Notes under the pieces: generated by a model | What the model saw: the letters and a program-made list of their open reading frames with translations, nothing else | Databases searched by the model: none | What the model was told of the DNA's origin: nothing | Position numbers and translations under genes: made by a program | Part shown: positions 7,988 to 23,096 of the stretch, piece after piece | Layout of the letters: each line of letters starts with the position of its first letter | Position numbering within the stretch: position 1 is the stretch's first letter | Source: a virus | Lineage: Duplodnaviria > Caudoviricetes | Virus record (IMG/VR): IMGVR_UViG_3300030098_005697 | Span: 1-56,110 of that record | DNA length: 56,110 bases | Strand: one strand, 5' to 3'

Positions 7988-10164
7988 TCCTGCGTTGGGA
8001 GCGCGACTACTTTGCCAGCCGGTTTCTTCACCTCGGGCACAGGAAGGCCGACATATACGTCAACCTTTCTTCCCGCAATTCGAGCAGGTCGAACATCTGT
8101 TCCATCAATATCTCGAACAGCCAACCTCACCAAAGTCTCACTGCGATAATCAGAACGACCATTCCGCTGACACCATTCACGGTAGCAACCGTAAAGCGTC
8201 TCACAGGGCACACACTTTGAAGCCGCTGAGTCAGAGACTCTAAGATACGAAGGTCCGGGGGGGTAGTTACTGAGCATGGCAACTGCACCATAATTTGCGA
8301 GGTCGCACACAAAGGTATCGACACTTCCCATAGAAGCTCTTTGCAACTCTGCCTTCTTCTGGTTTACCACTGGGGTTGCAATCAACTGCCAATTGACTTG
8401 GACAGTATTCAGATGCCACGCGAAGGCTTCAATCTCCGCGCGAAAACCAGGCATAGGCGTGCTGGACTGAGCATCAAAGCAGTCTCTCAACATTTGGCGA
8501 TAAGCTGGGGAAGCTTTCGCAGGCGACAGGACTGTAAAGCGGCGATCATCTACTTCAAGGACCAAAGGACGCCGTTTGTTGGAAGTCATCCACCATGTCA
8601 TTCGGTTCTTTACTGTAGTTCTGGCCGCATATGGAGCGCTACAATGAATCCGGTCGTCTGTAATGCAGGCCTTTATCTCTGCAATAGAATCACCTTTGCT
8701 GACTCCAACTTCATCGGCCAAGACCAGTAGTTTGGCTACATAGTGAGAGTTGAAATTATCACTCAAAGCTCGGTTGGAAACCACAGCGCTGTTTCCAGTC
8801 CCAATGACATCTGAAAGGATCCTTCCATACATTGACTTTCCAATCCCCTGCTGAGGAGAGAGGACCAAAACTGCAACCATAGCGCGCCGAGCAGGTTCCT
8901 GAACAAGAGCAGCGGACCAATGAATCAACCACTCTTTGGCCTTCGCATCACCAGCACAGAGCAAGTCGATAACTTGCTCAATTCTGTCCCAAGACCCTGG
9001 AGCCGGTTCAAGAGTAGGCCAAGCATATAGGTTCAAGAGCGGAAGCTTATTCACATAAACCACAGGATCCTTCAATGCTTGGCAATCAAACCCATAGACC
9101 TGACGGCTTAGAATATGATCGACCAGAGCTTGAGCATGATTTTTGTCGCACCCGGTTGGAAGCAGACCAATGAAATGATCAATGAGAGTTTCCTTCTTCA
9201 TCGGGCTGGAAATCTGCCAAGCTCCATCAGAATGCCGATAGAAGACCCCTTGCATGGAAGAGTAAACAAGCCGCTTCTCCGCATACTTTTGGATCTTGTC
9301 CGGAACCTCGGCAAGAAGATCCTTCCGAGCTTCAACTGATCTCTGGGCAGACTTCTTCTTAGACGCCTCTGATATCCACCACTGTTTTCCCTCATGGGTA
9401 TGTCGATCGCTGGTGCACTGGATGAAACACCGCCCGTTTTTGGTAACCCGGACAAACGCACTTCCAATAGAAGCATCCTCTTGCATAGGGCATGCGATCT
9501 TGTACTTACCCTCCCCCATTTTTATGATGTCGCCCAGAGACTTCTTAGTTCCATCTCCCAGAACAACTACAAGGTTCTTATCAACCTTGGGCAGAGAGCC
9601 ACTTTTCTTTTCCTGGCTAATCTCATTGGCATCCAGCACAGAACCCTCCATATATACATCAGCAAAATACTCTGCTCCCTTCTTCCGAGCAGGCAAAGCA
9701 TAGTGCCTTGAAATGTTTCTCGCCTGCCGATCAACTCCTTGATCATAACCGATGATCTTAAGGCCATTCTCCCAAGCTCCAGAATATTCGTTGGGTTTAA
9801 GTGGACGCGATACGAAGAGAATCACCCGGTAGCGGGGATTGTTGACATCATGAGACCATGTGGTGTGGATGATAAACGACACCCCCTTCTTTGAAAGGGC
9901 CACACTTACGACCTCGGGCCTCAGGGTTGTGTGGTCGTAGTCGTAGACCAAAGCTGTAACTTCTTTGACGTTCCCGTTAGATCGCTTCTCACCTGGGCCA
10001 TACAAAGAAGGAGACCAGCAAGGAAGGTCCTTTTTAGGGAAGCTCGAAGTCCGTTCAGGTGGGGACTCGAATGTTCGAGTGATATCAGAGGGGGACTTGA
10101 AAGCGGCAAGACGAGAGTATATACTCATCATGCCAGGGAATAGGGATACATTCCACGGTAGCAT
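7984..10164 (-). CDS. Primase-helicase (N-terminal prim-pol, C-terminal SF3/DUF5906-like P-loop)
   Basis: LVYDYD, HTTWSH, PRYRVIL in the N-terminus. QQGIGKS, LADEV, TSN, DDRRF in the C-terminus. Confidence 0.85.
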   Translation of the reverse strand: MLPWNVSLFPGMMSIYSRLAAFKSPSDITRTFESPPERTSSFPKKDLPCWSPSLYGPGEKRSNGNVKEVTALVYDYDHTTLRPEVVSVALSKKGVSFIIHTTWSHDVNNPRYRVILFVSRPLKPNEYSGAWENGLKIIGYDQGVDRQARNISRHYALPARKKGAEYFADVYMEGSVLDANEISQEKKSGSLPKVDKNLVVVLGDGTKKSLGDIIKMGEGKYKIACPMQEDASIGSAFVRVTKNGRCFIQCTSDRHTHEGKQWWISEASKKKSAQRSVEARKDLLAEVPDKIQKYAEKRLVYSSMQGVFYRHSDGAWQISSPMKKETLIDHFIGLLPTGCDKNHAQALVDHILSRQVYGFDCQALKDPVVYVNKLPLLNLYAWPTLEPAPGSWDRIEQVIDLLCAGDAKAKEWLIHWSAALVQEPARRAMVAVLVLSPQQGIGKSMYGRILSDVIGTGNSAVVSNRALSDNFNSHYVAKLLVLADEVGVSKGDSIAEIKACITDDRIHCSAPYAARTTVKNRMTWWMTSNKRRPLVLEVDDRRFTVLSPAKASPAYRQMLRDCFDAQSSTPMPGFRAEIEAFAWHLNTVQVNWQLIATPVVNQKKAELQRASMGSVDTFVCDLANYGAVAMLSNYPPGPSYLRVSDSAASKCVPCETLYGCYREWCQRNGRSDYRSETLVRLAVRDIDGTDVRPARIAGRKVDVYVGLPVPEVKKPAGKVVALPTQE

Positions 10165-10217
10165 AGGTTTAATCCTTTTCGCCTGAGAGACTCGCCCCTC
10201 TCAGGCGATTTTGTTTT

Positions 10218-10475
10218 CTACTCTTCTTCTGAAGAGCTTGTGATTTGAGACAACCCTTCTTGTAGAAGGAATTCGATAGTTGAGTTGGTAGAAATGGAGG
10301 CAGCAGGGAATGACCTTCTAAGCTCCTCTGCCAACCCATCGAGTCTCTCCCAAAATTCTTGGGGCAACCGTAGGGGCCGCCGCTTTCGATCTCGCGCCCT
10401 TGTTGTACCATTCCGGGCAGAGTTCAGGAAGGGGGATTCTTCCGCTTTCAACATCCCGCGTATTGTCAACTTCAT
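10218..10475 (-). CDS. Ribbon-helix-helix (Arc/CopG-like) DNA-binding protein
   Basis: RPLRLPQEFWERLDGLAEE...STNSTIEFLLQEGL strand-helix-helix pattern. Start MKLTIRG with AGGAG and ATGA overlap. Confidence 0.7.
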   Translation of the reverse strand: MKLTIRGMLKAEESPFLNSARNGTTRARDRKRRPLRLPQEFWERLDGLAEELRRSFPAASISTNSTIEFLLQEGLSQITSSSEEE

Positions 10476-10837
10476 ACATTCTCCTGTTTGATCCAAAGTC
10501 TTGGCCGCTTCCCGGCTGTTCTCCAAACTTGCTTCCGAACATACCCCCCAGCCCGAAGTACATTTGCAATTTGAATCTTTGCTTTGTGGTGGCCGAAAAG
10601 TATCTCATTTGGAAATAGGGCAGTAATCATCTCTTCCATTGAGAAGCCCCGTTTCTCATCTTGTAGTCTTTGGGCCACAACCAAGATGGCCTGAGCCGTC
10701 CTTTGAATCTCGGTTGTTCCTTGCGCTCTCTCCTCCAGCATTGAGAGAGCTTCCCCAATGAGAAACTCTGGAGAGGTCCCAAGCTGAGAAGAGAGGGCCG
10801 ACACCCTCTGCTGGAACGTTTCACTTAAAATCATCAT
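10472..10837 (-). CDS. Putative DNA-binding protein (N-terminal RHH-like, C-terminal winged-helix-like)
   Basis: ILSETFQQRVSALSSQLGTSPEFLIGEAL and IANVLRAGGYVRKQVW. Start re-set to 10837 after AGGAGG. Confidence 0.55.
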   Translation of the reverse strand: MMILSETFQQRVSALSSQLGTSPEFLIGEALSMLEERAQGTTEIQRTAQAILVVAQRLQDEKRGFSMEEMITALFPNEILFGHHKAKIQIANVLRAGGYVRKQVWRTAGKRPRLWIKQENV

Positions 10838-10856
10838 GACCTCCTGTGTCTCTAAT

Positions 10857-10885
10857 AAACTACCATATCGGGGGTATGGTGTCAA
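10857..10885 (-). promoter_or_regulatory. Sigma70-type promoter of the replication operon with internal operator-like palindrome
   Basis: TTGACA-N17-TAGTTT with extended -10 TG. ACCATA-N7-TATGGT inverted repeat at 10862-10880. Confidence 0.7.
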
Positions 10886-11323
10886 TGCTTAGACTTGTCA
10901 ATCAGGTGTCAAGGTATCGATGGAACGTTGCAGATACATCCCATAACCTTTAGAGTGTTTTACCCCCTGAAAATGCAGTTAGAACCTACTCTAAAAATGC
11001 TCTAAACCTCGTGAGTGGAGGGGGTCTAAACTGTATGGTATAAACTACCATGTACCACGTAGGTGGTACTTTTAGGTAAAGAGTGTATGATGACCCCCCA
11101 CTCTGGATTGTCTGAGTAGTCAGCGAAAATACCCTTCGGAACTATCATACTCCCAGAACTGGATTGACTTGACTAACGCCACAGGACCTCGTGAGTGTAG
11201 TCCCTACCAGAAAATGGGGTTTCTTTGCCTGATATCTACATCTCTTATAATCGTGTGTAGTGGGTATAAGTTCCGGCGAACGTTCCAGATAAAGTCAATA
11301 CCCTACAACACAGGCAAATTGGG

Positions 11324-11352
11324 TTGCATAAACGTGGCTTTCTCGGTAGTAT
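11324..11352 (+). promoter_or_regulatory. Sigma70-type promoter for the isolated plus-strand gene
   Basis: TTGCAT-N17-TAGTAT about 55 nt upstream of AAGGAG-ATG. Confidence 0.55.
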
Positions 11353-11408
11353 CCTCTTGGCATACCCGGATTCACCGGGCGGGCGATGTCCCGTAAGAGT
11401 CTAAGGAG

Positions 11409-12314
11409 ATGACGATGCCTCATATCAAACCAAAACATTTACATCCTCAACGCGGAACTGGTTACCATGGTGCTCTCCTGGGCATTGCAGAGGAAGCGAT
11501 AGCTGAAAACGACCTCGTAATTGCTATTGGCTACGACGGAGAACGGATCAAATTTCGCCAAGCAGATACTGATGCCGGTGGAAGAGATATTGGGATCATG
11601 GGTGTAGCTGACCATGCTGCTGGTGTTGGAGAATCTCTTCGAGTTGTTTCATACAAGCTCATTAAAAACGTAGACACCAGTGCTGTATTTGCTGCTGGCT
11701 CTCCAGTTTATGTATCTGATACCGCAGGCGGATGGTCTGCGGCTTCCGGTGCAGTTGGAATCGTTGCTGGTCAAGCACTTGAAAAGCATGCTTCTACTGG
11801 CGCTGTCTTGTTGGCTCCTGGTATGACCAACGCTCGGATGCAGAAAAAACGCGTGATTGCTTTGACGAATGCAACAACAACAGCACGCACAATGCTTGCG
11901 GATGAATCTGGCGCACTCGTTACATTGGACCCCAACACCAATACTGCAACTACAATCACTGTGACCTTGCCTGCTATCGCTGGGACTGCTGGTATCTATT
12001 ATGATTTTGCAATCATCAAAGATATGCAACATACCGGAGCCGATATCATTATCAATACAGCCGGAGCGAGTGAAGCCAACTTTGTTGGATTCCTCACTCA
12101 AGGCACTCCCCAGATTGCCGAGGGCGGGAGCGCCACACATGCAGCATCTGTAAACGTTCTTGAGATTGCACATGGAACGATTACCTTTGATGCATCTGTA
12201 AGCCTAACAACTGGGAATACAAAGTTTCAGGTTATCTCTGATGGAGTCCAGTGGATTATCTCTGGAAACAGTACAGCGGTCAGTGGTGTTACAAACCCAG
12301 TTCTGAGTAACTAA
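11409..12314 (+). CDS. Probable virion decoration/head-fibre protein
   Basis: N-terminal cement-like domain (AEEAIAENDLV...IMGVA...AGSPVYVSDTAG), then Thr/Ala/Gly-rich beta domain (LADESGALVTLD...VTLPA...YYDF). Confidence 0.55.
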   Translation: MTMPHIKPKHLHPQRGTGYHGALLGIAEEAIAENDLVIAIGYDGERIKFRQADTDAGGRDIGIMGVADHAAGVGESLRVVSYKLIKNVDTSAVFAAGSPVYVSDTAGGWSAASGAVGIVAGQALEKHASTGAVLLAPGMTNARMQKKRVIALTNATTTARTMLADESGALVTLDPNTNTATTITVTLPAIAGTAGIYYDFAIIKDMQHTGADIIINTAGASEANFVGFLTQGTPQIAEGGSATHAASVNVLEIAHGTITFDASVSLTTGNTKFQVISDGVQWIISGNSTAVSGVTNPVLSN

Positions 12315-12333
12315 GCCAGCGTAAATCGCAGAC

Positions 12334-12368
12334 AAAAAAAAGCCCCTGGCCATTACGACCAGGGGCTT
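12334..12368. terminator. Intrinsic terminator between convergent genes (U-run on minus strand)
   Basis: 10-bp stem AAGCCCCTGG/CCAGGGGCTT with a 9-nt loop, preceded by an A8 run. Confidence 0.85.
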
Positions 12369-12390
12369 ACTTGTTTCTATTGAAACTTAT

Positions 12391-12582
12391 CTATTCTTTT
12401 CTGAACCCATCAAACCACGGACCATACTTCTTCGTCCTCCTCTGGGCTTCCTCTGAGGTCGCGGTTCTGCTGGAGGTCTCGGGATCATTACAATGTTCCC
12501 GCGCTTCTTCCTCGGTGAGTCCCGTTCTCACCACCTCTGCATCTCGGGACCTATTTGCAAAGCACCTAATTATTGTGTACAT
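12391..12582 (-). CDS. Small conserved-looking phage protein
   Basis: MYTIIRCF...TGLTEEEAREHCNDPETSSRT...GPWFDGF. GGAGG RBS. Pattern recalled from small phage early proteins, not verified. Confidence 0.7.
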   Translation of the reverse strand: MYTIIRCFANRSRDAEVVRTGLTEEEAREHCNDPETSSRTATSEEAQRRTKKYGPWFDGFRKE

Positions 12583-12763
12583 TTCGAACCTCCTCCTCCA
12601 GGGCACGAACCAAACCCCAAAACTCAGGGTCTTCCTCAAGGGGAATCGGGGAGTCTCCCCGAGCCGAGATATAAATGGTGAGCCTGTCAGCCTTAATGGC
12701 CAACTCACTGGGCACACGCAACTTGTATTCCCCAAATAGTTGTAGTTGTTTCTTGTCTTTCAT
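12566..12763 (-). CDS. Hypothetical protein
   Basis: 65-aa ORF with GGAG RBS, tightly packed in the operon. Confidence 0.6.
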   Translation of the reverse strand: MKDKKQLQLFGEYKLRVPSELAIKADRLTIYISARGDSPIPLEEDPEFWGLVRALEEEVRNVHNN

Positions 12764-12769
12764 ATTTGA

Positions 12770-13690
12770 TTACTCCATAAGTTGAACGATTGCGGTGGTA
12801 GCAATACCATCAATTTCATCGCATCTTGTTTTGATGCTCTCCAAACCCCCGCCAAAGATTTTAGCGTAGCGTTCTGCACGCTCCTGGAGGCTGATTGCAT
12901 CCTCTCTCCGAGACTCCAGTGCACGCTGGCCTTGAGAACCCGATAGGATTTGAGCTTCCAACTCATCAGCTTTCTGTTGAATCTCCCGCTCTGCTCTTTC
13001 AACAATGGTTCGAACCCCCTTTGGGTCCATTGCTGTCCGAAGCCGGTACAATCGATTACCCTCGTATGCTTTCTCCAGGCAAGCTCCAAGCCACGCCCAG
13101 GTTTTGACATATTTCTCAGGGAGCCAGTAAACTCCTCCACGAGATCGCAGGGAAGTCCCGTCCATCCTCCAGCAAGCATCTGCCAATGCCTTGCTGACCT
13201 TTGCCGATGGCACCTTGCCTAACTCCACATGGTAGAAGGCTCGAAGGGAAACAATGGTTGGGTGCTCCTTCGGAACTGGGTTTCCTGTTTTAACAGAGAA
13301 CAACTCTGGTTCCTGGCCATCCTTTGGTACTGGAACTGAGAACAGCACCTCAGTACCATTTACTGGGAGACCATTTTCCTCAGTAGCGAATCTTCGCGCT
13401 ACTTGGTATCCGCTGTTCTTCTTCTTCTCCAAGGGTTCAATGACTGCTCCCATTGGGGAAAAGACTTTAGCCAGAGCCTTCTTTAACGCGGCTAAACGCG
13501 TGTTCCTTTCAGGCAGGCACTTGATGAAGCCTCCACGAGGGGGAATAACTCCCCGACTTGCAGCATGCGCATCACACGCCTCCAAGTTTCGCTTCAACGT
13601 TTCCCAGTTTGTGCTCTCGGTGAGCGACCATAGGACAACACAGCCCGAAAGGCTGACGCTCTTCTCTTCTACTTTGCCTGTTATAGACAT
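12770..13690 (-). CDS. DUF6744-like protein associated with MoxR/vWA modules
   Basis: GCVVLWSL N-terminus, LRSRGGVYWLP motif and C-terminal coiled coil. Adjacent to the vWA gene. Family name from recollection. Confidence 0.55.
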   Translation of the reverse strand: MSITGKVEEKSVSLSGCVVLWSLTESTNWETLKRNLEACDAHAASRGVIPPRGGFIKCLPERNTRLAALKKALAKVFSPMGAVIEPLEKKKNSGYQVARRFATEENGLPVNGTEVLFSVPVPKDGQEPELFSVKTGNPVPKEHPTIVSLRAFYHVELGKVPSAKVSKALADACWRMDGTSLRSRGGVYWLPEKYVKTWAWLGACLEKAYEGNRLYRLRTAMDPKGVRTIVERAEREIQQKADELEAQILSGSQGQRALESRREDAISLQERAERYAKIFGGGLESIKTRCDEIDGIATTAIVQLME

Positions 13691-13721
13691 TGCTTTCTCC
13701 AGTTGGTTTTCCTACCTCGAA

Positions 13722-13781
13722 ATTGAGTGCAGGCCGAGACCCACCAACATCGCTGCTGGTGGGCCAAGGTCTGAACTCAAT
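13722..13781 (-). ncRNA. Repeated intergenic hairpin, copy 1
   Basis: UUGAGUUCAG...CCCACCA/UGGUGGG...CUGCACUCAA. Starts on the vWA gene UGA. Confidence 0.75.
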
Positions 13782-15111
13782 CGTCAACGACGATTTTCTT
13801 CATCCACACGGGCACTCCTCTTCCACCATTATTGCAGTGTCCCAAAATCACTGCGATTTGTTTGCAACCTTTAGAGGGCTTCAATGGCCACGGGGTATAG
13901 CCATCTGTCAACGTGACAATAATGTTGGGCCGAGGTTTCAGGGCCAGAGCAGCTTCAATTCCAACCGTCATATCAGTACCTCCCCGCCCTGTTATCTTAA
14001 TATCTTGCGCTCTCCGGAACACTTGAGCTTCCCCTGCTCTGGTATCGCAGGGAATAGCTCTTACCTTTGCACGCTTCAGAACCCGCACCGCCTCATCAAT
14101 CTCTGACAAAGCAGCCGAAACGTCGGCATCATTCATGGACCCCGAAGTATCAACCACAAAACACACACTGGGAATAGGACTTACCATCCCAGCCAGAACT
14201 ACACCCTCCTGGGCAGTTGCCTGGAGCATCGAAGGAGACCGGTAACTTTTCTCTGCTCTCCCCTTTACCCAAACTTCCGCCTTCTTTAGTGCAGACTTGA
14301 AGGCGTTCTGCCACTTCACCTTTGGAGGCTTTAATGGAGAGGTGAGACGACTGACCCAGTTTCCGGGGAGGTCTCCCCTTGCCTGGGAAGATGTCGCAAT
14401 AGCCTCAGCCACTTGCCGCTTCATCAATCGGGCTTCCGCCCCAGAGACTCCAGGACTTCCACCTTCATCGGGAGGAGCTTCTTCCCAAGGACGGGGAACA
14501 CCGTCCACGATACTCCCACAGTCACCATTTCCCGGAGATGCACCAGAGGACTCTTCTCCCTCACCCTCCTGGGCATCATCTCCTCCTCCCCCTTCCCCAT
14601 TTTCGTCCCCATCTTCGTCCCCATCTTCTCCATCTCCATCCTCTGGGGGTTCTTCTTTCTGGAGGAGGTCATAGTATTGCTCTGCTGAGAGGTCAGCGGA
14701 CCAACCAAACTTCTCTGGCTGGAGAGCATCGGGAGGAAGCATCCGACGGAGCTTTGGACAGCAGTTTATTTCCAAGTCGCACGCAACGTTCCAAAGTTTG
14801 GGGTCACGGGAACCCCTCCGCTCGTGGTGTTCCAATACACCATGAAAGATTTCATGGCCAATTAGGCCCGTAAACTCTGTCTTGGAAAGCCCCTCAACAA
14901 ATTTGGGGGAAAGATAGACCCTCCAGAACTGATCCATGGCAGCAGTCTGCACTTCATCCGACCAGATAAACTGAACGCGACAAACTGCCGACGGAAGGTA
15001 AGGAAACCCCACCGGAGTATACCGACTCTCCCCCGGCTTGCCAATGGCAACCGGGTTTAGGAGGCGCGCCATAACGCCCTCTAATTTCATGCGTAGTTCA
15101 CTACTAACCAT
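13777..15111 (-). CDS. DUF2201-type metallopeptidase-vWA domain protein
   Basis: HEIFH zincin motif, WNVACDLEIN, acidic linker, MIDAS DTSGS...GGTD...LTDGY. Confidence 0.9.
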   Translation of the reverse strand: MVSSELRMKLEGVMARLLNPVAIGKPGESRYTPVGFPYLPSAVCRVQFIWSDEVQTAAMDQFWRVYLSPKFVEGLSKTEFTGLIGHEIFHGVLEHHERRGSRDPKLWNVACDLEINCCPKLRRMLPPDALQPEKFGWSADLSAEQYYDLLQKEEPPEDGDGEDGDEDGDENGEGGGGDDAQEGEGEESSGASPGNGDCGSIVDGVPRPWEEAPPDEGGSPGVSGAEARLMKRQVAEAIATSSQARGDLPGNWVSRLTSPLKPPKVKWQNAFKSALKKAEVWVKGRAEKSYRSPSMLQATAQEGVVLAGMVSPIPSVCFVVDTSGSMNDADVSAALSEIDEAVRVLKRAKVRAIPCDTRAGEAQVFRRAQDIKITGRGGTDMTVGIEAALALKPRPNIIVTLTDGYTPWPLKPSKGCKQIAVILGHCNNGGRGVPVWMKKIVVDD

Positions 15112-16111
15112 GCTTCACCTCTGTGATTCTCCAACCGAGGACCTCTCCAGACTCTGGGTATCGCCTCCGAAACTGGGCTTCCCCTAAGTACCCCAGTTGG
15201 GTACCTGCCTTGGGCCAGTGCCCACCGTGCTCATAGTTATTTTCAACTGCCACAGAGGCAGGAGTGGGAGTACCAATTTTATACCTCCAGTTGAACACTC
15301 TTCTCCCCGTTCCGGGGTGACGGTACATTCTCTCTACTGGTTCCTTGTATACAACAAGACCCCCGCCAAGCTCTTCCAGCACAACAACTCTTGTGCCCTC
15401 AGTGTTGAAGGCATGAAAGTACTTCTTAACAGTGGGCCAATGGCCACTAACTTCTTTATCAGGAAAGCTTTTATTGGCAGCATCTCGCAGGCCATCTCCT
15501 TGAAAGTTTCCTGGTAGGGAGTAGAGAAAAGTTCTCTTGTGGAATTGAAACTTTCTCTGCCCTTGACTTCGCATCCAGAGAACGCGGGCATGAGCACTTC
15601 CACGTCCATACCTAATACTTGCATAATCACCCCACTTGGGGACAATCGCCTGTGCCGCTTCCCGGTGTGCTTGAAGTTCTTCGCGAAGGACCTTTGCTCC
15701 TCGAATAAGGGGAGCAGGAATATCACTACGTTTTTGGTTGTGTCTCCCGATGCCTGGGTAATTCTTCCCGTTCGGGAAGTGCGCTCTCCAAGCATCCCGA
15801 ATCTGGTAGCACCGGCATATCCCGGTGTTGGTTTCTCCAGCCAAGCCAAGCAGCCCAGCAATCAGGTCCTCTTCGGATACCCCATCTGTGACCTCTTGGT
15901 GGTCATGAAGAAACAAGTCTCCATTCCACCGCAGGGAAATGCGGTGCCTTTTCCCCATGCAGTTAACGTTCGCTGTAACTGGCCCCTCCCAGGGGGAGCC
16001 AACAGCCTTGTGCTTTCGCACAAGCTTCAACTGCTTCTTTCTGTTCGCTCTTGCGCGCCGCTCCTGGCGCTTCCTTAACTTTCGATTTTCTCTTCGTGTT
16101 GCTTTACTCAT
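15104..16111 (-). CDS. Hypothetical basic protein
   Basis: Start MSKATRREN follows AGGAG. Arg/Lys-rich N-terminus. Confidence 0.7.
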   Translation of the reverse strand: MSKATRRENRKLRKRQERRARANRKKQLKLVRKHKAVGSPWEGPVTANVNCMGKRHRISLRWNGDLFLHDHQEVTDGVSEEDLIAGLLGLAGETNTGICRCYQIRDAWRAHFPNGKNYPGIGRHNQKRSDIPAPLIRGAKVLREELQAHREAAQAIVPKWGDYASIRYGRGSAHARVLWMRSQGQRKFQFHKRTFLYSLPGNFQGDGLRDAANKSFPDKEVSGHWPTVKKYFHAFNTEGTRVVVLEELGGGLVVYKEPVERMYRHPGTGRRVFNWRYKIGTPTPASVAVENNYEHGGHWPKAGTQLGYLGEAQFRRRYPESGEVLGWRITEVKHG

Positions 16112-16191
16112 TACTTTGTCTCCTGATTTTGCTTGGTTTTGGTTCTTCTTCCTATTCTTCCTCTTCCTACTCTGAACTTTAGTACAAACAT
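16111..16191 (-). CDS. 26-aa basic micro-protein (unannotated)
   Basis: GGAGAAAGT-ATG leader like other early genes. MFVLKFRVGRGRIGRRTKTKQNQETK. TAATG coupling to the next gene. Confidence 0.5.
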   Translation of the reverse strand: MFVLKFRVGRGRIGRRTKTKQNQETK

Positions 16192-16272
16192 ACTTTCTCC
16201 TTTGGTGTAAACACCACGAGAGGCACCCGCTCCAGAGAACGAGTGCCCCAAGCACTGCCGACACAATCAGAG

Positions 16273-17538
16273 TTAAGCGCCCATGTAGGCCTTAATTACA
16301 GGGGCAAACGCCCTCATGGCCGGGGGAACTTTCCCCTTGAGAGCCTTCTTGATGTGGGGTTTCTGAAACTGACCATCGGACATCAAACTCTTCACAGTCC
16401 GAACAATCATGCCCTCCTTCCCAGTGACCTCTTTGGCATTGAGAAGGAAGTCCCATGCGGCAAGCCACGCGGTTGCATCCTTCTCCTGGGCACTCTTCTC
16501 AAGTGCCAGAGAAACCACGTTCTGGCAAATCACCAAGACTTTGTGGTTATCCTTGGCGTACATTTCAAAGATACCTTTGACGGCATCTTTGTCCCCTGCC
16601 ACCCGGAGGCATTCCCTGGGAGATGGCAAATCCCAGTTGGCCTTGAAGGCCAAAAACTGATTGGTGATATGGCTGCTTATGCAGCCTTGGAGCAACTTCA
16701 TCTCGGCATCTGCCAAGATGGAAGCCGGAACCTTCCCCTCTTTTCGAAGGGCTTCACACGCAGTCAGCAGGAAGATGGCTCCCAGCCAAGAGCGAGAGTT
16801 GGCACAGGGACCAGCCTCTCCTAAGAGAACTCCATCCAGGGCATTCTCTGGAGAAGGTTTCGATAGCATGTACTCTCCATTCTTCTCTAAGAACGCCGAG
16901 ACTAATGTCCTGGTAGACACTGCTTCTCGCCTCCAACCGGGAGGGAGGCTTATGATGGGAGGAGTGGGGGTTGGATTGTCTTCACCTCGGGAGAAGGCTT
17001 CAAAGAAGTCCTCTGTATAAGAATCATATTCCTCCCAACTGGGAGCCTTCATGATTAGCTGGCAAAATCTGCTGGCCATCGGCCCTGAGAATTGTTCCCC
17101 AGTTGTACTGCTCTCTGGAGGGTTCAACATCGCTACAATGGCGGTGTTCTTCGGTAGCCGAACTGTTCCCAGTTGTGCCCCTGTGAGCACGTTCTGGAAT
17201 GCACTCTGAACATGCGTTCCACCCTCCACTGCCTCATCGATTATCAGGCATCCTTCCCCAGGCTTCGCTTCCAAAACAGCATCAAATATTCCACTGGGAA
17301 GGAAGCTTGCAACGTTCGCCCCCGGGCGGATGTATGGAATACCCGCTACCGCCTCGGGAATAATTTGTGAGCAACTAAAGTGTGCCCACGTTCGGAACAT
17401 TGCATTGACAATTGCTTTCACACGAGCGCTCTTGCCGACGCCAGGGTCACCAATCAAGGCGACTCCCAGACCCTCTTCAGTTTCCTGTTGTACTCTAAGG
17501 CCGATTTGAAGGGCCATTATTGTTGCTGACATTTTCAT
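16273..17538 (-). CDS. MoxR-like AAA+ ATPase
   Basis: Walker A GDPGVGKS, Walker B LIIDE, sensor-1 AMLNP, arginine finger MASRF, sensor-2 NSRSW. Confidence 0.88.
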   Translation of the reverse strand: MKMSATIMALQIGLRVQQETEEGLGVALIGDPGVGKSARVKAIVNAMFRTWAHFSCSQIIPEAVAGIPYIRPGANVASFLPSGIFDAVLEAKPGEGCLIIDEAVEGGTHVQSAFQNVLTGAQLGTVRLPKNTAIVAMLNPPESSTTGEQFSGPMASRFCQLIMKAPSWEEYDSYTEDFFEAFSRGEDNPTPTPPIISLPPGWRREAVSTRTLVSAFLEKNGEYMLSKPSPENALDGVLLGEAGPCANSRSWLGAIFLLTACEALRKEGKVPASILADAEMKLLQGCISSHITNQFLAFKANWDLPSPRECLRVAGDKDAVKGIFEMYAKDNHKVLVICQNVVSLALEKSAQEKDATAWLAAWDFLLNAKEVTGKEGMIVRTVKSLMSDGQFQKPHIKKALKGKVPPAMRAFAPVIKAYMGA

Positions 17539-17566
17539 TTTTGCTTTCTCCTATACTGACTCGAAA

Positions 17567-17624
17567 TTGAGTACAGTAAAAGGCCCACCAAGCTTTCGAC
17601 TGGTGAGCGATTTGCTGTACTCAA
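17567..17624 (-). ncRNA. Repeated intergenic hairpin, copy 2
   Basis: UUGAGUACAG...CUCACCA/UGGUGGG...CUGUACUCAA, then UUUCGAG as in copy 1. Starts on the upstream UGA. Confidence 0.75.
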
Positions 17625-17818
17625 GCCCTGAAATACTCTCCAAAGAGGAGCACCAACTTCTTCTCCCCAAAGGAAGCCGCTACTAAGTAGTGCTCCCCCA
17701 AAGACCTTCTTACAGCACTGTCTTCAACTGGAACCCAAACAGGTCCCAAGTTCTCCCAGGTCTCTCCGGAGACCTCCAACACTGTGTCTAAGAAGGATGC
17801 CAATGTTTCATGTTTCAT
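17621..17818 (-). CDS. Hypothetical protein
   Basis: 65-aa ORF in the early array. Confidence 0.6.
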   Translation of the reverse strand: MKHETLASFLDTVLEVSGETWENLGPVWVPVEDSAVRRSLGEHYLVAASFGEKKLVLLFGEYFRA

Positions 17819-17839
17819 GTTTATTCTCTCTTGAAAATC

Positions 17840-17915
17840 GGGGTAAACCTACCAAACCGTGTGAACCTGGCAAACCCCTATCAGTGTTTCTGGAGGTCAC
17901 CCCCCAGAAACTGTC
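17840..17915 (-). other. Second repeated intergenic motif, copy A
   Basis: GACA-[stem-loop]-UGAUAGGGG-UUUGCCA-GGUU...CGGUUUG. Similar to 19642-19711. Confidence 0.6.
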
Positions 17916-17942
17916 TCAATGCAACAAAACTAAGAATTCCTT

Positions 17943-18128
17943 TCACTCATCGGGATTCTCCTCTGCCTTGCTACGGCAAAATACACACTCAAAGTGTTTT
18001 GGGTCGATGAATCTTGGGCTCTCAGCCAACTCACGGTCAGCGCAGACCGTGAGTTTGATTGTAAACAAAACGGCGTCCTTGTATTTATTAGTGCGGGATA
18101 CGCACTTAGGATTACTACACCTAAGCAT
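17943..18128 (-). CDS. Small zinc-finger protein
   Basis: MLRCSNPKC...FECVFC. AAGGAG RBS. Confidence 0.7.
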   Translation of the reverse strand: MLRCSNPKCVSRTNKYKDAVLFTIKLTVCADRELAESPRFIDPKHFECVFCRSKAEENPDE

Positions 18129-18174
18129 GAACCTCTCCTTTTTCGTTTCCAAGGGTTGTTGTTGTTTTGGTCTC

Positions 18175-18339
18175 TCAGGCAAGAAGCCTAAGGACCTCCC
18201 AGACACAAACAGACACTGCTAAAGCATTGACTCCCATCAACACAAGAAGCGCTCGAATCTGAGCACTCCCCGAGGACCAGCAATTGGAGAAAGTTAAGAT
18301 GAGCCAGAACCAAATCGGGAGCATTAGAAGGTAGAACAT
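18175..18339 (-). CDS. 54-aa membrane protein (below ORF-track cutoff)
   Basis: MFYLLMLPIWFWLILTF...ALLVLMGVNALAVSVCVW, two hydrophobic stretches. TAATG coupling. Confidence 0.5.
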   Translation of the reverse strand: MFYLLMLPIWFWLILTFSNCWSSGSAQIRALLVLMGVNALAVSVCVWEVLRLLA

Positions 18340-18506
18340 TAGCTGTTCTCCCGGGGAAGAAGACCGGCCTGAAAGGCTTCAATTAACTGGTCAATATTCC
18401 GGTCTTCCTTTTCCAACTTCTCCAAGCGCTCAGTCTCTGTACTGGGAACGCTCCCAGCACAACCGGTTTGAATCTCCCAAATCATTGCTTCATAATTGCT
18501 TGGCAT
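18339..18506 (-). CDS. 55-aa hypothetical protein (below ORF-track cutoff)
   Basis: AAGGAGCAAGCAAA-ATG leader. MPSNYEAMIWEIQTG...LLPRENS. Confidence 0.6.
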   Translation of the reverse strand: MPSNYEAMIWEIQTGCAGSVPSTETERLEKLEKEDRNIDQLIEAFQAGLLPRENS

Positions 18507-18531
18507 TTTGCTTGCTCCTTTGTTTTCCTGC

Positions 18532-18592
18532 TTGATTACAGGCGAGCAACCACCAGAGAGGAACCCCGCTGGTAGTTACCGATTGTATTCAA
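18532..18592 (-). ncRNA. Repeated intergenic hairpin, copy 3
   Basis: UUGAAUACA...GUAACUACCAG/CUGGUGGUUGC...CUGUAAUCAA. Starts on the upstream UGA. Confidence 0.75.
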
Positions 18593-18861
18593 ACAGCTTT
18601 CACATACTCAGGATGGAGAGAAACTTTGATACCTCCATCTCTATCGAGAGAGAAGGCGTCCCCACGAGGGCCATAACCTTCACATAGGTACGGCAAACCC
18701 TGATGCCAAACCGTGATCTGGCCAGCATACGAAGTTACTCTTCCATTGCTGACCGTGTTGTATGACCGGTCTTCCAGTCCCTGAATCTCATCCCAACGAT
18801 TTGAAGCATTCCGGCGGAATGCCTTGGACTTTGCTTTCTCAATAATCTCTTTCTTATTCAT
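18589..18861 (-). CDS. Hypothetical protein
   Basis: 90-aa ORF with AAGGAG RBS. Confidence 0.7.
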   Translation of the reverse strand: MNKKEIIEKAKSKAFRRNASNRWDEIQGLEDRSYNTVSNGRVTSYAGQITVWHQGLPYLCEGYGPRGDAFSLDRDGGIKVSLHPEYVKAV

Positions 18862-18882
18862 CTTTCTTACTCCTTCCCCTGC

Positions 18883-18942
18883 TTGAGTGCAGGCGAGCAG
18901 CCACTAAAGAGTCTCTCCTTAGTAGCTACCGGCTCCACTCAA
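18883..18942 (-). ncRNA. Repeated intergenic hairpin, copy 4
   Basis: UUGAGUGGAG...GUAGCUACUAA/UUAGUGGCUGC...CUGCACUCAA. Starts on the upstream UGA. Confidence 0.75.
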
Positions 18943-19151
18943 ACAGCTATTTCATTGAAGCTCTTTAGTTTCTTGTTGTGTTCTGAAACTTTCAAGGCCT
19001 GGATGGCCAGTTTCAGGTGGCCTTGAATCCGCCGGATTTGGGGGTTCTCTTGGCATCCAGCATACTCAACCAACTCTTCCAACTCTTCCAGCGCCAATTC
19101 AAGGTGCCGCTGAGTGACCGAGTTGAGAGCTTGTTCTCGAAGATTAGACAT
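18939..19151 (-). CDS. Hypothetical helical protein
   Basis: Start MSNLREQ follows GGAGG and overlaps the upstream stop. Confidence 0.6.
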   Translation of the reverse strand: MSNLREQALNSVTQRHLELALEELEELVEYAGCQENPQIRRIQGHLKLAIQALKVSEHNKKLKSFNEIAV

Positions 19152-19566
19152 TGCCAACCTCCAGCTTCCGTTCGAAGCTTCCATCTTTTCCCGTCCAGGA
19201 GCCAGTTGCGTCGGGACCCCATTGCAGGAAAGTTCCCTTTTCCGTGTTGACAAAGCTTCCCTCGGAACTCCATTCAAATCCCCAGGGGCGCAATTTCTCC
19301 TGGACTTCCAGGAGGTCATCCCCCAAAGAGGACTTCAACATCTCCTCCATCCCCATCTTCTTTGCTTCCTGGAAACAGACAAACATGATTTGCGCCGCAA
19401 ACTTGATGGCTTCTTCTCGGTTTCGGTGGTGTGCCTCCCGAAGAACTTTGTCAATCTCTTCGCGCACGAGGTCCACCACATGCCAGGAGATAATCTCCTC
19501 GGCCATAAGGTTCGAAATGGTTTCTTGAAGTTCTCTCAGTTTTCTTTGCTCTGAATATCGAAGCAT
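19144..19566 (-). CDS. Hypothetical protein
   Basis: 140-aa ORF with AGGAGAAAGCAAG-ATG leader, directly downstream of the hammerhead. Confidence 0.7.
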   Translation of the reverse strand: MLRYSEQRKLRELQETISNLMAEEIISWHVVDLVREEIDKVLREAHHRNREEAIKFAAQIMFVCFQEAKKMGMEEMLKSSLGDDLLEVQEKLRPWGFEWSSEGSFVNTEKGTFLQWGPDATGSWTGKDGSFERKLEVGNV

Positions 19567-19587
19567 CTTGCTTTCTCCTATTTGGTT

Positions 19588-19641
19588 GCTGTTTCATCCT
19601 TCTATGGAATCTTCAGTGACCCAGAATCAGGGCCATACAGC
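19588..19641 (-). ncRNA. Type III hammerhead ribozyme
   Basis: GCUGUA^UGGCCC-UGAUUCU-GGGUCA-CUGAAGA-UUCC-AUAGAA-GGAU-GAAACAGC. Full core, stems I-III, GUA triplet, loop I UUCU complementary to loop II AGAA. Confidence 0.85.
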
Positions 19642-19711
19642 GCAAACTCAACAAACCGCAAAAACGTGGCAGACCCCCTATCACTTCTTCGAGGTAGCCC
19701 CTCGAAGTGTC
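19642..19711 (-). other. Second repeated intergenic motif, copy B
   Basis: GACA-[CUUCGAGG/CCUCGAAG]-UGAUAGGGGG-UCUGCCA-CGUU...CGGUUUG. Abuts the hammerhead. Confidence 0.6.
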
Positions 19712-19796
19712 GTTTGTTTGAGATGTTTCCCCAGGAAGGTCCCGGGTTTGGGTCCCCCTGGGGAGGTCCCCAGGGATGGTCTCGATTTTCAGCCAC

Positions 19797-19825
19797 AAGA
19801 AAGGGGGTCCCGAAATGGGACCCCC
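19797..19825 (-). terminator. Intrinsic terminator after the first early gene
   Basis: 9-bp stem GGGGGUCCC/GGGACCCCC followed by UUUCUU. Confidence 0.7.
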
Positions 19826-19852
19826 AGAGAAGGAAGAGAGAAGAGGGAAGCG

Positions 19853-20722
19853 CTACCCCAGGAGACCCTTCTCTTGCGCGGCATTCTGAGCACCAGCCAG
19901 CGCAGCCCGAGCGGCTGCAAGTTGAGCCTCCAACTTCGCAACGGCACTGCGAGAAGCTTCCAACTTCTCCAGTTCTTCGGCCGGGTTGAGTAGACCAACA
20001 GTACCCCCCAGGACCTCCGCAATATCCGCGTCAAGCAAGTCCCACTCAAGACCGTTGTTATCAGTCAGGTCTCCATCGTTTTGAAGTAGTGACCACAAGA
20101 CCTCCCGACACCGGTTGAGAAGGGAAGCGTAGATTGGGTTCACAGGCACCACTTGAGTGGAACCCTTCAGGGCTGCTTTCATCTCCTCAATGTCTGCGCT
20201 GAGGTCTCCTGAAGCGCCCCCAGGGGAGTGCATGGAGAACGTCACGGGGGAGGTCTTGACGGTACCGCACCACTTCCCGAATCCCATCTTGTCGGGGCTA
20301 GCTGCGTTCAAGTTGAAAGCAGGCATCTCCTGAAGTGGCGAGAACATGTGACCCGTAGGGCTACCGTTCACATACTGACGGAACACCAATGCGGTAGCTC
20401 GTTTTGTCTTCAGGCCAGCGGACCCCTTCCGACGTCCCACTTGAACCAGGGACGTGGGAGTCAATGCCCAACCCGAGAAGTCAGGACCGAAAGTAGTCGT
20501 CACCTTGGAGACCTTGGCTCGATTCGCCTCCTGGAGAGCAGCGTGCGCAGCGGCATCTTCCCATGGGTTTGTGACGTCCTCTTGGAGAGCGTCTTCAGGG
20601 GAAGTCTCTGGGGAGGCCTCGGAAGAGGTCTCTTGGGGGGAGGTCTCTGGGGAGGTCTCCAAGAGAGTGTCAAGAAAGGTCGTCTCGGAAGAGGTCTCTT
20701 GGGCGTTGTTGTTGTTGCTCAT
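19853..20722 (-). CDS. First gene of the leftward unit; acidic protein with ETS(P/S) repeats and C-terminal coiled coil
   Basis: GGAGAAAGCA-ATG leader. MSNNNNAQETSSETT...ETSPETSPQETSSEASPETSPED. Confidence 0.75.
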   Translation of the reverse strand: MSNNNNAQETSSETTFLDTLLETSPETSPQETSSEASPETSPEDALQEDVTNPWEDAAAHAALQEANRAKVSKVTTTFGPDFSGWALTPTSLVQVGRRKGSAGLKTKRATALVFRQYVNGSPTGHMFSPLQEMPAFNLNAASPDKMGFGKWCGTVKTSPVTFSMHSPGGASGDLSADIEEMKAALKGSTQVVPVNPIYASLLNRCREVLWSLLQNDGDLTDNNGLEWDLLDADIAEVLGGTVGLLNPAEELEKLEASRSAVAKLEAQLAAARAALAGAQNAAQEKGLLG

Positions 20723-20770
20723 TGCTTTCTCCATTGTCTGGGACGGGTTTTCTGGAGGTCGTCGCCAAAG

Positions 20771-20982
20771 CCATTTTCGGCGCAGACTCCCCCGTCCCCC
20801 GGTCCCCAACGGTGCACCGGACCCCAACCTTATCACACGTCTATAACCCCGTGTTCATCGGCATCGTAGAGGACCCCCCTGAACAGTTGTACAGTGTTTT
20901 ATCCAGTGATTCTCCCATCTTCGGCGTATATCCTCCACTTTCATCTATTCAGACCCCGTGGTCAATCTCGCCATTTTCGGCG
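20771..20982. repeat. Short direct repeats in the strand-switch region
   Basis: CCATYTTCGGCG at 20771, 20915 and 20971. ACCCCGTGKTCA twice (about 20846 and 20953). Confidence 0.65.
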
Positions 20983-21530
20983 TTCTACCGTAGCCCGTGA
21001 CACCACAAAACACCACATGCACCGCGATATCAACTGCCTTGACCCCTTACTTGTCAGGTAATTGTCAAGCCCTATTCTATAGGAGGAACGCCCGATATCG
21101 AGGACCAGCCCATATCAGGCGTTTGTCGGTGTCTATGGCCCGATTGCTTCTAAGCTCTTCCAGGTGTCAAGGTACCTCCAAGACTGTGCAAGCCGTCCAG
21201 CGTGCTATGAGCCGCCTCCCTGGGGGGAGGGTTGGAGGTCTCCTGGTTCGGTCTTTCAGTGCGTGGATTTCAACGGCCGTCAAACAGTGCACCCAGTGTT
21301 CGGGCGCATCCTGGTTGGAGACAAGGGAAGACTGGGCGCCAAGTCGCGCGCTCTCTCCTGCTCTCCTCCCCCGCGCGCGCTCTCCTTCTCTACAGCAGAG
21401 GAGACAACCCCGCGAAAAGAAGAGACGACTTTCATCCTGGGGAAAGAGGGACGAATGGCCTGCCCCCTATCATCCCGTCGGGTAGGCTGCCCAAGGGCAT
21501 CCCCCCTTTGGGGATGGACCATGCCTTTCT

Positions 21531-22463
21531 TTGGAGTCCCGCTCAACAATGAATCAAGTTTCCCGTTTTCAGAATTGTCGATTACCCCCTTCGAAACTGA
21601 TGCATTTCCTATTTCATAGCAAAACTCTGCGAGAATCTGGACTTCCAAAACGGATGATGCTGGATCAATTATGTGCAACGTTCGGGGTGTATCCTCCGAA
21701 GTTTCAAAAAGAGAAAATGTGGAAGATTTCAGTTATCCCGCAGGTCCGAAGGAACATGGATACTCTTCGTGCGCATCTGATGAAGGCTCCGGTGCTCCTG
21801 TCTGGTCTCCTGGACGAGAGGATGTTTGTAGCCCGCCCGGAGTGGACGGAGGCTCAACGGTATGCGTTCAATCTAAAAGCTCCTCCAAGTCCCTATGAGG
21901 TTGCTTGCGCGCTGCTCCAGGCCCCTACGGCTCAGTTCTGGGGATTGGCGAGGGCCAAGGGGTTCAACCGATGCCGGTATAGTATGTTGTTGTGGTGGGT
22001 GGCTGGATTACCCGAGGAGGCCATGATCCATCACCTGGGCATCTCAAGCGATGAGCTTGATTGGAATCTCGCAAAGTGCATCGAGGACTTGATGGAGACA
22101 GACAACTTCTCCTTCTGGGCATTAAATCCATTGATGGATGTAGTCTGCACCACACAGTCGATGAGAGTCATCCTTCGGAGGATGCGAGAGGGGAGGAAAA
22201 CGGGGACTGGTGCGGGGTTGGGGGAGCGAGAAGCGAAGGACCGACTGTTTGCCCATCCGTATTATCGAGCACAGTTGTATTCGGGGAAGAGCGATAACCC
22301 ACAACCCAGGCCCAACTTCACTCCAGGGATTATTTGGGAAACACTCGACGAGCGCAGGAAATGGGAGAGGACTTGGGATGGGAAAGGGCTGGAGTGGCTG
22401 ATGATTCGGAGAAGGATGGTGAGGACATTGGCACCACAGTGGGCACAACTTCCCATTTATTGA
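21531..22463 (+). CDS. Hypothetical protein with possible sigma70 region-4-like HTH (candidate late regulator)
   Basis: LLWWVAGLPEEAMIHHLGISSDELDWNLAKCIEDL. First gene of the rightward unit. Start codon uncertain. Confidence 0.45.
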   Translation: MESRSTMNQVSRFQNCRLPPSKLMHFLFHSKTLRESGLPKRMMLDQLCATFGVYPPKFQKEKMWKISVIPQVRRNMDTLRAHLMKAPVLLSGLLDERMFVARPEWTEAQRYAFNLKAPPSPYEVACALLQAPTAQFWGLARAKGFNRCRYSMLLWWVAGLPEEAMIHHLGISSDELDWNLAKCIEDLMETDNFSFWALNPLMDVVCTTQSMRVILRRMREGRKTGTGAGLGEREAKDRLFAHPYYRAQLYSGKSDNPQPRPNFTPGIIWETLDERRKWERTWDGKGLEWLMIRRRMVRTLAPQWAQLPIY

Positions 22464-22478
22464 TGTTATAGTCAGGCC

Positions 22479-22886
22479 ATGAGTAAGAAGAAGTCCACCC
22501 CTCAGGTCCAGTCCCCTCCCGTTGCTCTGGATTCTCTGCTCGGTGCAGGGAAGGTGCGGGATTTGTCGAACGTTACAGATATCTGTGCAGAAGCAATGAG
22601 CGCACTGCTGCATAAGCAGTTAGGAACTGCCCAATCGAGAGAACTGAGACAGTGGACAGAGTTGATGTTCACTTGCCTCCAGGTGGAGAAGGGTGTTCAC
22701 AGCGATGGAGATGTGAACTACATCACGCAGCTTGTGAATATTGAGGCTGCGAAGATGGAAGCACCACAGATCGTCCAAGTTGAGCCAGCCCAGATAAAAG
22801 ATGTTGGGACTCCGACTGAAGAAATTGTGGAGGCCGAAGTTTCAGACGATGTAGATTGGGATTCCCTGCTACAAGCGACTGCTTAA
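22479..22886 (+). CDS. Hypothetical protein, positional candidate for terminase small subunit
   Basis: 135 aa, helical, acidic tail, upstream of TerL. Confidence 0.4.
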   Translation: MSKKKSTPQVQSPPVALDSLLGAGKVRDLSNVTDICAEAMSALLHKQLGTAQSRELRQWTELMFTCLQVEKGVHSDGDVNYITQLVNIEAAKMEAPQIVQVEPAQIKDVGTPTEEIVEAEVSDDVDWDSLLQATA

Positions 22887-22898
22887 AAGGAGCACAAA

Positions 22899-23096
22899 AT
22901 GCCTACAGATAAACGGTATGCGGATCACCGATTGAGTGCTGTTCGAGAGGCAATGGGAGCAGAGTTTGAGTCTCCGCCAAAACCCCAGCCCGAACGGCAA
23001 GAAGGAGTTGACCCAGAGCCATTGCGTCCTGGAGAAGGTCACCCTCGGACAACTGCTGCAAGAGAGGCGATACACGCCATCAATGAGGCAGTGTGA
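22899..23096 (+). CDS. Hypothetical protein
   Basis: AAGGAG RBS and GTGA overlap with TerL. Confidence 0.55.
   Translation: MPTDKRYADHRLSAVREAMGAEFESPPKPQPERQEGVDPEPLRPGEGHPRTTAAREAIHAINEAV

Follow-up and report, generated by a model that had tools for sequence, protein, structure and literature searches.

What is the role of four similar RNA hairpins, each about 60 nucleotides (nt) long, that punctuate the early operon of an uncultured marine phage? The hairpins belong to the IMG/VR virus record IMGVR_UViG_3300030098_005697, which we analyzed over its whole length of 56,110 bases (hereafter, the window; CheckV completeness figure, 99%). The sequencing runs that contain this phage are marine metagenomes. 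An initial annotation of this DNA had proposed that the hairpins are an undescribed processing or stability element or, alternatively, a recombination landmark for shuffling gene cassettes. We found that they belong to a covarying family shared with related phages, that this family lies in the transcribed orientation on or close behind stop codons, and that its usual form in the relatives is a GC-rich stem with a U-run, nested in an additional outer helix. The reading that we favor, and to which we assign a probability of about 0.5, is that these elements are terminator-derived intercistronic hairpins that would act as ribosome-gated attenuators and would also serve as recombination joints.

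All four elements were present where they had been placed, and all on the minus strand. Together with the upstream open reading frame (ORF; length in amino acids [aa]) and the next gene, they are as follows.

13716..13789 (core 13723-13780), minus strand: copy 1, a two-storey hairpin; its UGA (13779-13777) stops the DUF2201 metallopeptidase/VWA gene, and the next gene starts at the ATG at 13690.
17560..17632 (core 17567-17624), minus strand: copy 2, the sole window copy with a U-run (CUUUUACUGU) past the inner stem; its UGA (17623-17621) stops a 65-aa ORF, and the ATPase gene starts at the ATG at 17538.
18525..18600 (core 18532-18592), minus strand: copy 3, whose outer helix reaches CUGUUUGA/UCAAGCAG (18527-18596); its UGA (18591-18589) stops a 90-aa ORF, and the next ATG is at 18506.
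18876..18950 (core 18883-18942), minus strand: copy 4, with its outer helix at 18878-18946; its UGA (18941-18939) stops an ORF of about 70 aa (19151..18939), and the next ATG is at 18861.

A search of the window for the pattern TTGART..CTGYAMTCAA returned five matches, which were these four loci with copy 2 matched on both strands, and the corresponding figure in 100 shuffles was 0.00. Similarly, a covariance model built from the four copies found exactly these four in 56,110 bases, at 76-85 bits; the reverse strands of the copies scored 20-28 bits, and the next best match scored 12.5 bits (E 0.25). The RNA fold energies of copies 1 to 4 were -41.9, -31.3, -36.8, and -45.8 kcal/mol (z-scores of -6.5, -5.5, -6.4, and -6.1), and 0 of 200 shuffles folded as well in each case. 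Among the 43 minus-strand segments folding at or below -30 kcal/mol, copy 4 ranked 1st, copy 1 3rd, and copy 3 9th, copy 2 being the weaker fold in this ranking. An RNALfold scan at -25 kcal/mol proved too permissive to use.

The proposed link to translation signals was confirmed as well. Indeed, the TGA within the TTGA of each 5' arm ends the upstream frame (ORFs 13777..15111, 17621..17818, 18589..18861, and 18939..19319; the likeliest start of the last is the ATG at 19151, behind a GGAGG, which gives 70 aa). A GGAG ribosome-binding site (RBS) follows shortly downstream, 22, 15, 13, and 9 nt past the TCAA of copies 1 to 4, respectively. The compensatory changes reported between copies 3 and 4 were found in the inner stem (A-U to G-C, C-G to U-A, and G-C to A-U). 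The whole window gave 0 matches to Rfam at the gathering score, and the family is thus not in Rfam. At an E value of 1 or less, the region 13600-19100 matched only mir-2756 (21.2 bits compared to a gathering score of 61; E 0.53), a chance look-alike.

A terminase query retrieved 72 related IMG/VR loci at 46-78% identity. In the intergenic gaps of the related locus L048 (record G001), we found a hairpin family of its own with the same architecture and with outer arms that are recognizably alike (UUUGAUUACAA...CUGUGCAAUCAAGCA in G001 and UUUGAAUACAA...CUGUAAUCAAGCA in the window). Covariance models R2 and R3, which were built from the window and G001 copies and then run on related records, detected 19 further copies in 4 of the 14 related records. 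Seven of these are in G003, six in G001, five in G010, and one in G002, so that the family, including the four window copies, amounts to 23 copies in 5 of 15 records, every one of them in sense orientation within the early operon. No copy was present in the ten other related records, which were searched over their whole length. In three genomes (the window with copy 1, G002, and G010), the DUF2201 gene is directly followed by one copy.

IMG/VR was also scanned for exact motifs. The 3' motif of the relatives gave eight loci, including G001, G003, and the new record G010, as well as L101 and L102, which were not confirmed as members. The window-type pattern gave eight loci as well, all of which were rejected as AT-rich chance matches without a hairpin. 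A scan with CCTGYAMTCAAGCAGG gave 105 stretches, and of the 80 that were examined with model R3, 0 were confirmed. In two relatives without the family (L017, 6989-7072; L084, 6898-7022; minus strand of these loci), a different small hairpin encloses stop codons and is followed by a GC-rich hairpin; between the two loci it differs by a compensatory U-A to C-G change (GCUGAGUAAUCAGC versus GCCGAGUAAUCGGC).

To what extent is the fold itself conserved? We aligned 15 copies with MAFFT (alignment A5) in one register with 24 modeled pairs, that is, 360 pair cells. Standard pairs occupied 90.6% of the cells, compared to 66.1% with shuffled partners (0 of 500 as high), and dropped to 34.5-45.6% when the partners were slid by 1-3 columns. 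Because of a bulged U, the inner stems of copies 3 and 4 are one column off register, so that the value of 90.6% understates their pairing. Double-sided changes occurred in 20 of the 24 pairs, and the covariation score was 0.721 versus 0.280. The outer arm has also been swapped in a compensatory manner (for example, UUGAUU/AAUCAA to AAAAGC/GCUUUU), and the orthologous E1 elements of G001 and G003 differ by a compensatory C-G to U-A change. The covariation first noted between two window copies thus extends to the wider family.

The alignment also bears on the strand that is selected. G.U combinations filled 56 of the 360 cells and A.C combinations 2, an excess from which we conclude that selection acts on the fold of the mRNA-sense strand. 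In agreement with this, folding favored the sense over the antisense strand in 22 of the 23 copies, with a mean advantage of 9.7 kcal/mol (these copies are nonindependent, two pairs of them being identical). Taken together, the G.U excess and the sense-strand stability are the signature expected of selection on the mRNA-sense strand, and this asymmetry argues against both a cruciform in double-stranded DNA and an antisense RNA.

What kind of mRNA structure is under selection is suggested by the inner stem. Its GC content in the 15 aligned copies is 0.45-0.70 (10 columns per side; columns 28-37 and 47-56 of A5), and it qualifies as a GC-rich hairpin. In G001, G003, and G010, the bases directly after this stem are CUUUUUACUGUG, GUUUUAUUGUG, and similar runs (in the G010 copies, CUUUUACUG, GUUUUACUG, CUUUUUACUG, and similar), and the U-run is paired with an A-rich 5'-side stretch. 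The shape in the relatives is therefore that of an intrinsic-terminator-like hairpin within an extra outer helix of 8-11 bp. The eight columns past the inner stem hold 4-6 U in the 11 aligned copies of the relatives and 5 U in copy 2, the inner hairpin of which was detected by a simple terminator scan. In copies 1, 3, and 4, the A-U part of the helix now consists of G-C pairs (for example, GGAGCCGG/..CUCGCCUG), by which the helix has been retained at full length and the terminator signature lost. Judging from their sequence, these three copies probably no longer terminate and have been kept as structured punctuation. The notion of an undescribed element can consequently be upheld in part: this is a covarying, RNA-level family on stop codons that is absent from Rfam, but since its usual form in the relatives is a GC stem and U-run in an outer helix, it is not wholly undescribed and represents a variant of known punctuation.

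Ordinary U-tract terminators are used elsewhere in this genome, and other intercistronic hairpins occur in the operon.

19803..19825, minus strand: terminator-like hairpin of canonical form, in the same operon and bearing a T-run.
12340..12368, minus strand: canonical terminator-like hairpin with a 13-pair stem and then T8, situated downstream of the region.
16196..16272, minus strand: intercistronic hairpin (-39.3 kcal/mol) directly past the ATPase stop, of similar architecture; no model calls it a member of the family.
17880-17930, minus strand: further intercistronic hairpin, CAGUUUCUGG...CCAGAAACACUG, without a U-run; at 17880-17896, the Logan contigs from two runs break off and resume.
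20583-20662, plus strand: strongest local fold of the genome (-50.1 kcal/mol), with repeated GGGGAGGTCTC-like words, inside a 327-codon minus-strand ORF.

For all 23 copies, we determined where the stop codon that closes the longest open frame upstream lies relative to the fold's first paired base. Fourteen stops overlap or adjoin the hairpin, another 5 precede it by 2-5 nt, and the last 4 precede it by 16-24 nt (the frame upstream of E1 in G003 has 33 codons only). TGA was used in 13 copies, TAG in 7, and TAA in 3. Anchoring to a stop codon is thus a trait of the family, and the UGA of a fixed motif is not required. We weighed recoding of the UGA, by selenocysteine insertion or read-through, and rejected it, since relatives use TAG or TAA, in some cases upstream of the helix, and since the covariation fits RNA pairing and not coding. 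Where the stop lies in the arm, the inner stem starts about 7-12 nt downstream. For lambda tR2, a terminator studied in Escherichia coli, published work describes almost full repression when it follows a translated stop codon by a few to about 17 bp, and maximal termination at more than 30 bp (PMC4824070).

On this basis, we propose the following scheme. In the early mRNA, each element forms a two-storey hairpin in which an inner GC-rich stem-loop is clasped by an outer helix; the 5' strand of this helix starts on or beside the upstream stop codon, and its 3' strand ends 9-22 nt before the next RBS. A ribosome that terminates on the upstream gene would cover the outer 5' strand and crowd the terminator hairpin, so that RNA polymerase would read on, and untranslated or uncoupled transcripts would stop at the element. 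Once the mRNA has been read through, the whole helix would shut and bury its A- and U-rich strands. The closed helix would then punctuate and stabilize the message and could offer a site to a double-strand RNase. Gating by translation would also explain how up to seven terminator-like hairpins can stand in series in one operon, since each would affect only those transcripts whose preceding cistron is untranslated.

The second part of the favored reading concerns recombination. In two related phages, G001 and G003, the gene content between elements varies, by presence or absence and by replacement. In the region concerned, the DNA of G001 and G003 is 82-98% identical and differs by three events. 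A 233-bp segment that comprises most of an 84-codon ORF is found in G001 only, its end coinciding with the 5' edge of E1. Between E2 and E3, the genes are nonhomologous, homology being lost 17 nt past E2 and regained in the middle of E3. Finally, a 985-bp insert in G003 (an ORF, its own element E5, and another ORF) begins 11 nt after E4. In this one genome pair, the boundaries 1594|1595, 2351, 2845, and 3878 all fall at or inside elements. Similarly, E3 and E4 form islands of 87.5% and 82.7% identity between G003 and G010, with little detectable DNA homology between them. In the window, two unrelated proteins (BLASTP E 1.3) receive identical last codons and an identical stop (..AGCUGUUUGA) from copies 3 and 4, and copies 2 and 1 bracket the ATPase-DUF2201 module as direct repeats. 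This module (13777-17538, minus strand) encodes an AAA ATPase, a protein of 335-386 aa without an assigned function, and the DUF2201 metallopeptidase/VWA protein. As 60-100-nt patches of homology between otherwise unrelated genes, the copies would be sites at which cassettes are gained, lost, or swapped. The idea of a recombination landmark is thus supported, on comparative grounds, by the breakpoints at element edges and by the islands of homology, but the analogy to integron attC sites that accompanied it fails.

Several observations weigh against this reading as a whole or against parts of it. L016, which has the closest terminase with a long upstream flank (76% identity), contains no copy. 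Copies 1, 3, and 4 have 2 U each in the eight columns past the inner stem and hence lack a U-tract. The outer helix cannot influence whether termination occurs, since its 3' strand is transcribed only after the U-run, and the role that we give to this helix is a guess. The precedent for gating comes from E. coli, which may not be the host of this phage. Breakpoints were compared in detail for one genome pair, G001 and G003, and their position at elements may simply reflect gene boundaries, given that the elements fill most of the longer intergenic gaps. In addition, the DNA contigs of four runs describe an almost clonal population with no listed difference within the four elements. Lastly, no RNA runs containing the phage are listed, a point that concerns termination, read-through, processing, and gating alike.

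In T7 early mRNA, the RNase III processing sites are interrupted hairpins of about 60 nt that lie between successive early genes and form a repeated family. Our elements could be sites of this type, at which a host double-strand RNase would cut the interrupted helix of about 25-30 bp and split the early polycistron into single-gene mRNAs with a protective 3' hairpin, the U-runs of the relatives being incidental. We consider this unlikely, even though it would account well for a helix that is selected over its full length, including an outer stem that is needless for termination, and that survives the loss of the U-run in copies 1, 3, and 4 by A-U to G-C replacement. With 24 modeled pairs, 90.6% paired, the elements are intercistronic hairpins whose interrupted double-stranded RNA amounts to some two turns or more; their helix length and small internal loops would fit the T7 R sites, and they occupy many successive gaps of the early operon (four in the window and seven in G003). 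However, a GC stem with a U-run, as found in 19 of the 23 copies, is specific to terminators and is not needed by RNase III. Furthermore, a Pfam scan of 62 distinct window ORFs (65 queries, as three ORFs were scanned twice with different starts) revealed no RNase III gene and no RNA polymerase, integrase, or transposase domain. A small, chiefly DNA-level mobile or recombinogenic palindrome, MITE/SPRITE-like or attC-like, that would propagate within and among phage genomes and of which the RNA fold would be a by-product, is very improbable. Its patchy spread (5 of 15 related records, with 1, 4, 5, 6, or 7 copies), the breakpoints at element edges, the direct-repeat pair formed by copies 1 and 2 around the ATPase-DUF2201 module, and the identical last codons and stop that copies 3 and 4 give to unrelated genes would all be compatible with such an element. 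The 56-to-2 ratio of G.U to A.C cells and the strand-biased stability nevertheless point to selection on the sense transcript, the single orientation of all 23 copies is not what such an element predicts, and the outer arms covary, whereas a transposase or integrase would need a fixed terminal sequence; the 62 ORFs, as said, hold no domain of either kind. The core sites R'' and R' of attC have the consensus RYYYAAC...GTTRRRY, and the arms TTGAGT...ACTCAA are opposite to it in polarity.

There is also little probability, in our view, that the elements primarily serve translational coupling, in which the hairpin would set the stop codon at its 5' base beside the RBS past its 3' base, so that ribosomes are handed on or an alternative fold controls initiation. 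The geometry is indeed constant, with the stop at most 5 nt from the 5' base in 19 of the 23 copies and the RBS 9-22 nt past the 3' base. Moreover, a 4-bp mini-hairpin, by which the outer 3' arm is looped out, is possible in 86.7% of cells and forms in all four window copies once the 5' arm is blocked, as by a ribosome on the stop codon; in these folding predictions, the inner hairpin stays intact. However, this mini-hairpin mostly reflects sequence conservation (shuffled controls, 80%; one of four pairs covaries), and the predicted accessibility of the RBS with a ribosome on the stop codon changes in no consistent direction (0.66 to 0.73, 0.55 to 0.72, 0.63 to 0.46, and 0.99 to 0.94 for copies 1 to 4). 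The mini-hairpin pairs columns 63-66 of A5 with columns 73-76, reads GUGC..GCAC or CUGC..GCAG in most copies and CCUGY-AMUCAA-GCAGG in copies 3 and 4, and covaries weakly. It would explain the conserved mismatch 18/66 and the wobble 11/73 of the long helix. A more ambitious version of our own reading, which we regard as doubtful, combines these features into a portable stop-terminator-restart module, a two-state RNA that would couple three events at one gene junction. A ribosome at the stop codon would open the clasp and suppress the nested terminator, making transcription of the next gene dependent on translation of the previous one, and the freed 3' strand would snap into the mini-hairpin next to the following RBS. 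Since such a module would supply both the upstream stop and the downstream RBS, an ORF dropped between two modules would be expressed at once. If true, early-gene cassettes would have this module as their unit of exchange in an abundant lineage of uncultured marine phages.

The genome that carries the four elements has the following layout.

About 20.8 kb down to 0.6 kb, minus strand: DNA polymerase A with a uracil-DNA-glycosylase (UDG)-like domain, primase, SNF2 helicase, and Sak4-like protein.
Within about 20.8 to 0.6 kb, minus strand: PD-(D/E)XK exonuclease, AAA ATPase, and DUF2201 metallopeptidase/VWA protein.
Plus strand: terminase, portal, and structural genes.

The polymerase is one 843-aa protein (1076-3607, minus strand) in which DNA polymerase A is joined to an N-terminal domain of the uracil-DNA-glycosylase superfamily and a 3'-5' exonuclease domain. 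Past the tail genes, a single ORF of 3,389 aa (40692-50861, plus strand) has no Pfam and no PHROG match and may encode a giant virion or injected protein. This ORF prompted us to consider the hairpins as promoters for a virion RNA polymerase, an idea that we rejected because the ORF has no such match and the copies of the relatives carry terminator-type U-runs.

No cultured phage is close, since terminase identity reaches no more than 29% over part of the protein, and blastn of the region against GenBank phages gave no match. The gene order ATPase-x-DUF2201-DUF6744 is retained in several related loci, with proteins 20-35% identical. Queries of viral contigs with the ATPase and DUF2201 proteins gave no close relatives, a word search with the ATPase gave no homologues at an E value of 1e-5 or less, and an ATPase query of metagenome contigs gave the same phage only (1 mismatch in 7,942 bases). 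Two short variable patches with dense alternative letters stand out in the X6 and X4 run contigs, one inside the ATPase gene (16653-16750) and the other among the small ORFs that follow copy 3 (18265-18349). Outside these patches, the remainder of the 5.5 kb is nearly invariant in the run contigs.

Phage early regions contain many small genes with fast turnover and no assigned function. To our knowledge, detailed knowledge of how such genes are inserted and immediately expressed exists for T4-like phages only, through their promoter-early stem-loops (PeSLs). The present family, from a marine lineage that is uncultured, would be a second, independent solution, namely, a junction module without a promoter that would supply a stop codon, a terminator-type hairpin, and the next RBS. 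It also offers a natural series, in which the same helix occurs with or without a U-run and at varied distances from the stop codon, suited to the study of ribosome gating and of the outer clasp helix. For annotation, the covariance model can be used to flag gene boundaries and cassette joints in these phages.

How do the elements compare to known systems? With attC sites, they share an imperfect palindrome with conserved outer parts and a variable but structurally conserved middle, the overlap with the end of the upstream ORF, and the position at the bounds of gene cassettes. However, the arms nTTGAGT...ACTCAAn are inverse to R''/R', the strand asymmetry fits an mRNA, and the Pfam-scanned ORFs include no recombinase domain that could belong to an integron integrase. 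With the RNase III sites of T7, they share the interrupted intergenic hairpin of about 60 nt, repeated as a family within one phage. Unlike the T7 sites, the copies of the relatives bear terminator-type U-runs, and the stop codon lies within the 5' arm.

The pneumococcal SPRITE elements are likewise dispersed repeats with a long duplex followed by a U-rich tract near gene 3' ends and have possibly been co-opted as terminators, according to their description (PMC3049150). The same source presents them as chromosomal, AT-rich repeats with AAAA/TTTT ends that are enriched between convergent genes (PMC3049150), whereas the phage elements lie between codirectional genes of one operon, always in sense orientation, and have covarying arms. 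Intrinsic terminators and attenuators consist of a GC-rich hairpin and an immediate U-tract of 7-9 nt (PMC3993855), and the inner GC stem and U-run are common to them, the relatives, and copy 2. As for tR2, the distance to the stop codon is within the range in which ribosomes repress termination (PMC4824070). The elements differ from such terminators by an additional outer helix with its 3' strand past the U-run, by the loss of the U-run in copies 1, 3, and 4, and by the presence of up to seven copies serially in one operon.

The closest parallel is provided by the PeSLs of T4-like myoviruses. As described, these are stem-loops that act or look like terminators or attenuators and flank small ORFan genes, and the breakpoints of insertions, deletions, and replacements between close relatives fall at the motifs (PMC2839356, PMC4122927). 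Our elements are also repeated stem-loops between an upstream stop codon and a downstream Shine-Dalgarno sequence and ATG, between ORFans. In contrast, PeSLs are defined in these reports by a strong sigma-70-like early promoter adjoining the stem-loop (PMC2839356, PMC4122927), and no such promoter was seen at the window elements. Indeed, a promoter consensus scan of 10000-23500 gave minus-strand promoter-like sites at 15044, 21101, 12283, and 12055 but none in or beside the four elements, the consensus used possibly not being that of the host, and no -35/-10 pair was seen on reading the copies. The phage family differs further by its long two-storey helix with covarying arms and by its occurrence in uncultured marine viruses of about 56 kb without a T4-like relative. 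Overall, the elements are best read as a combination of known kinds, intrinsic attenuators and PeSL-like cassettes, that is, as PeSL-like junctions without a promoter rather than as a new category.

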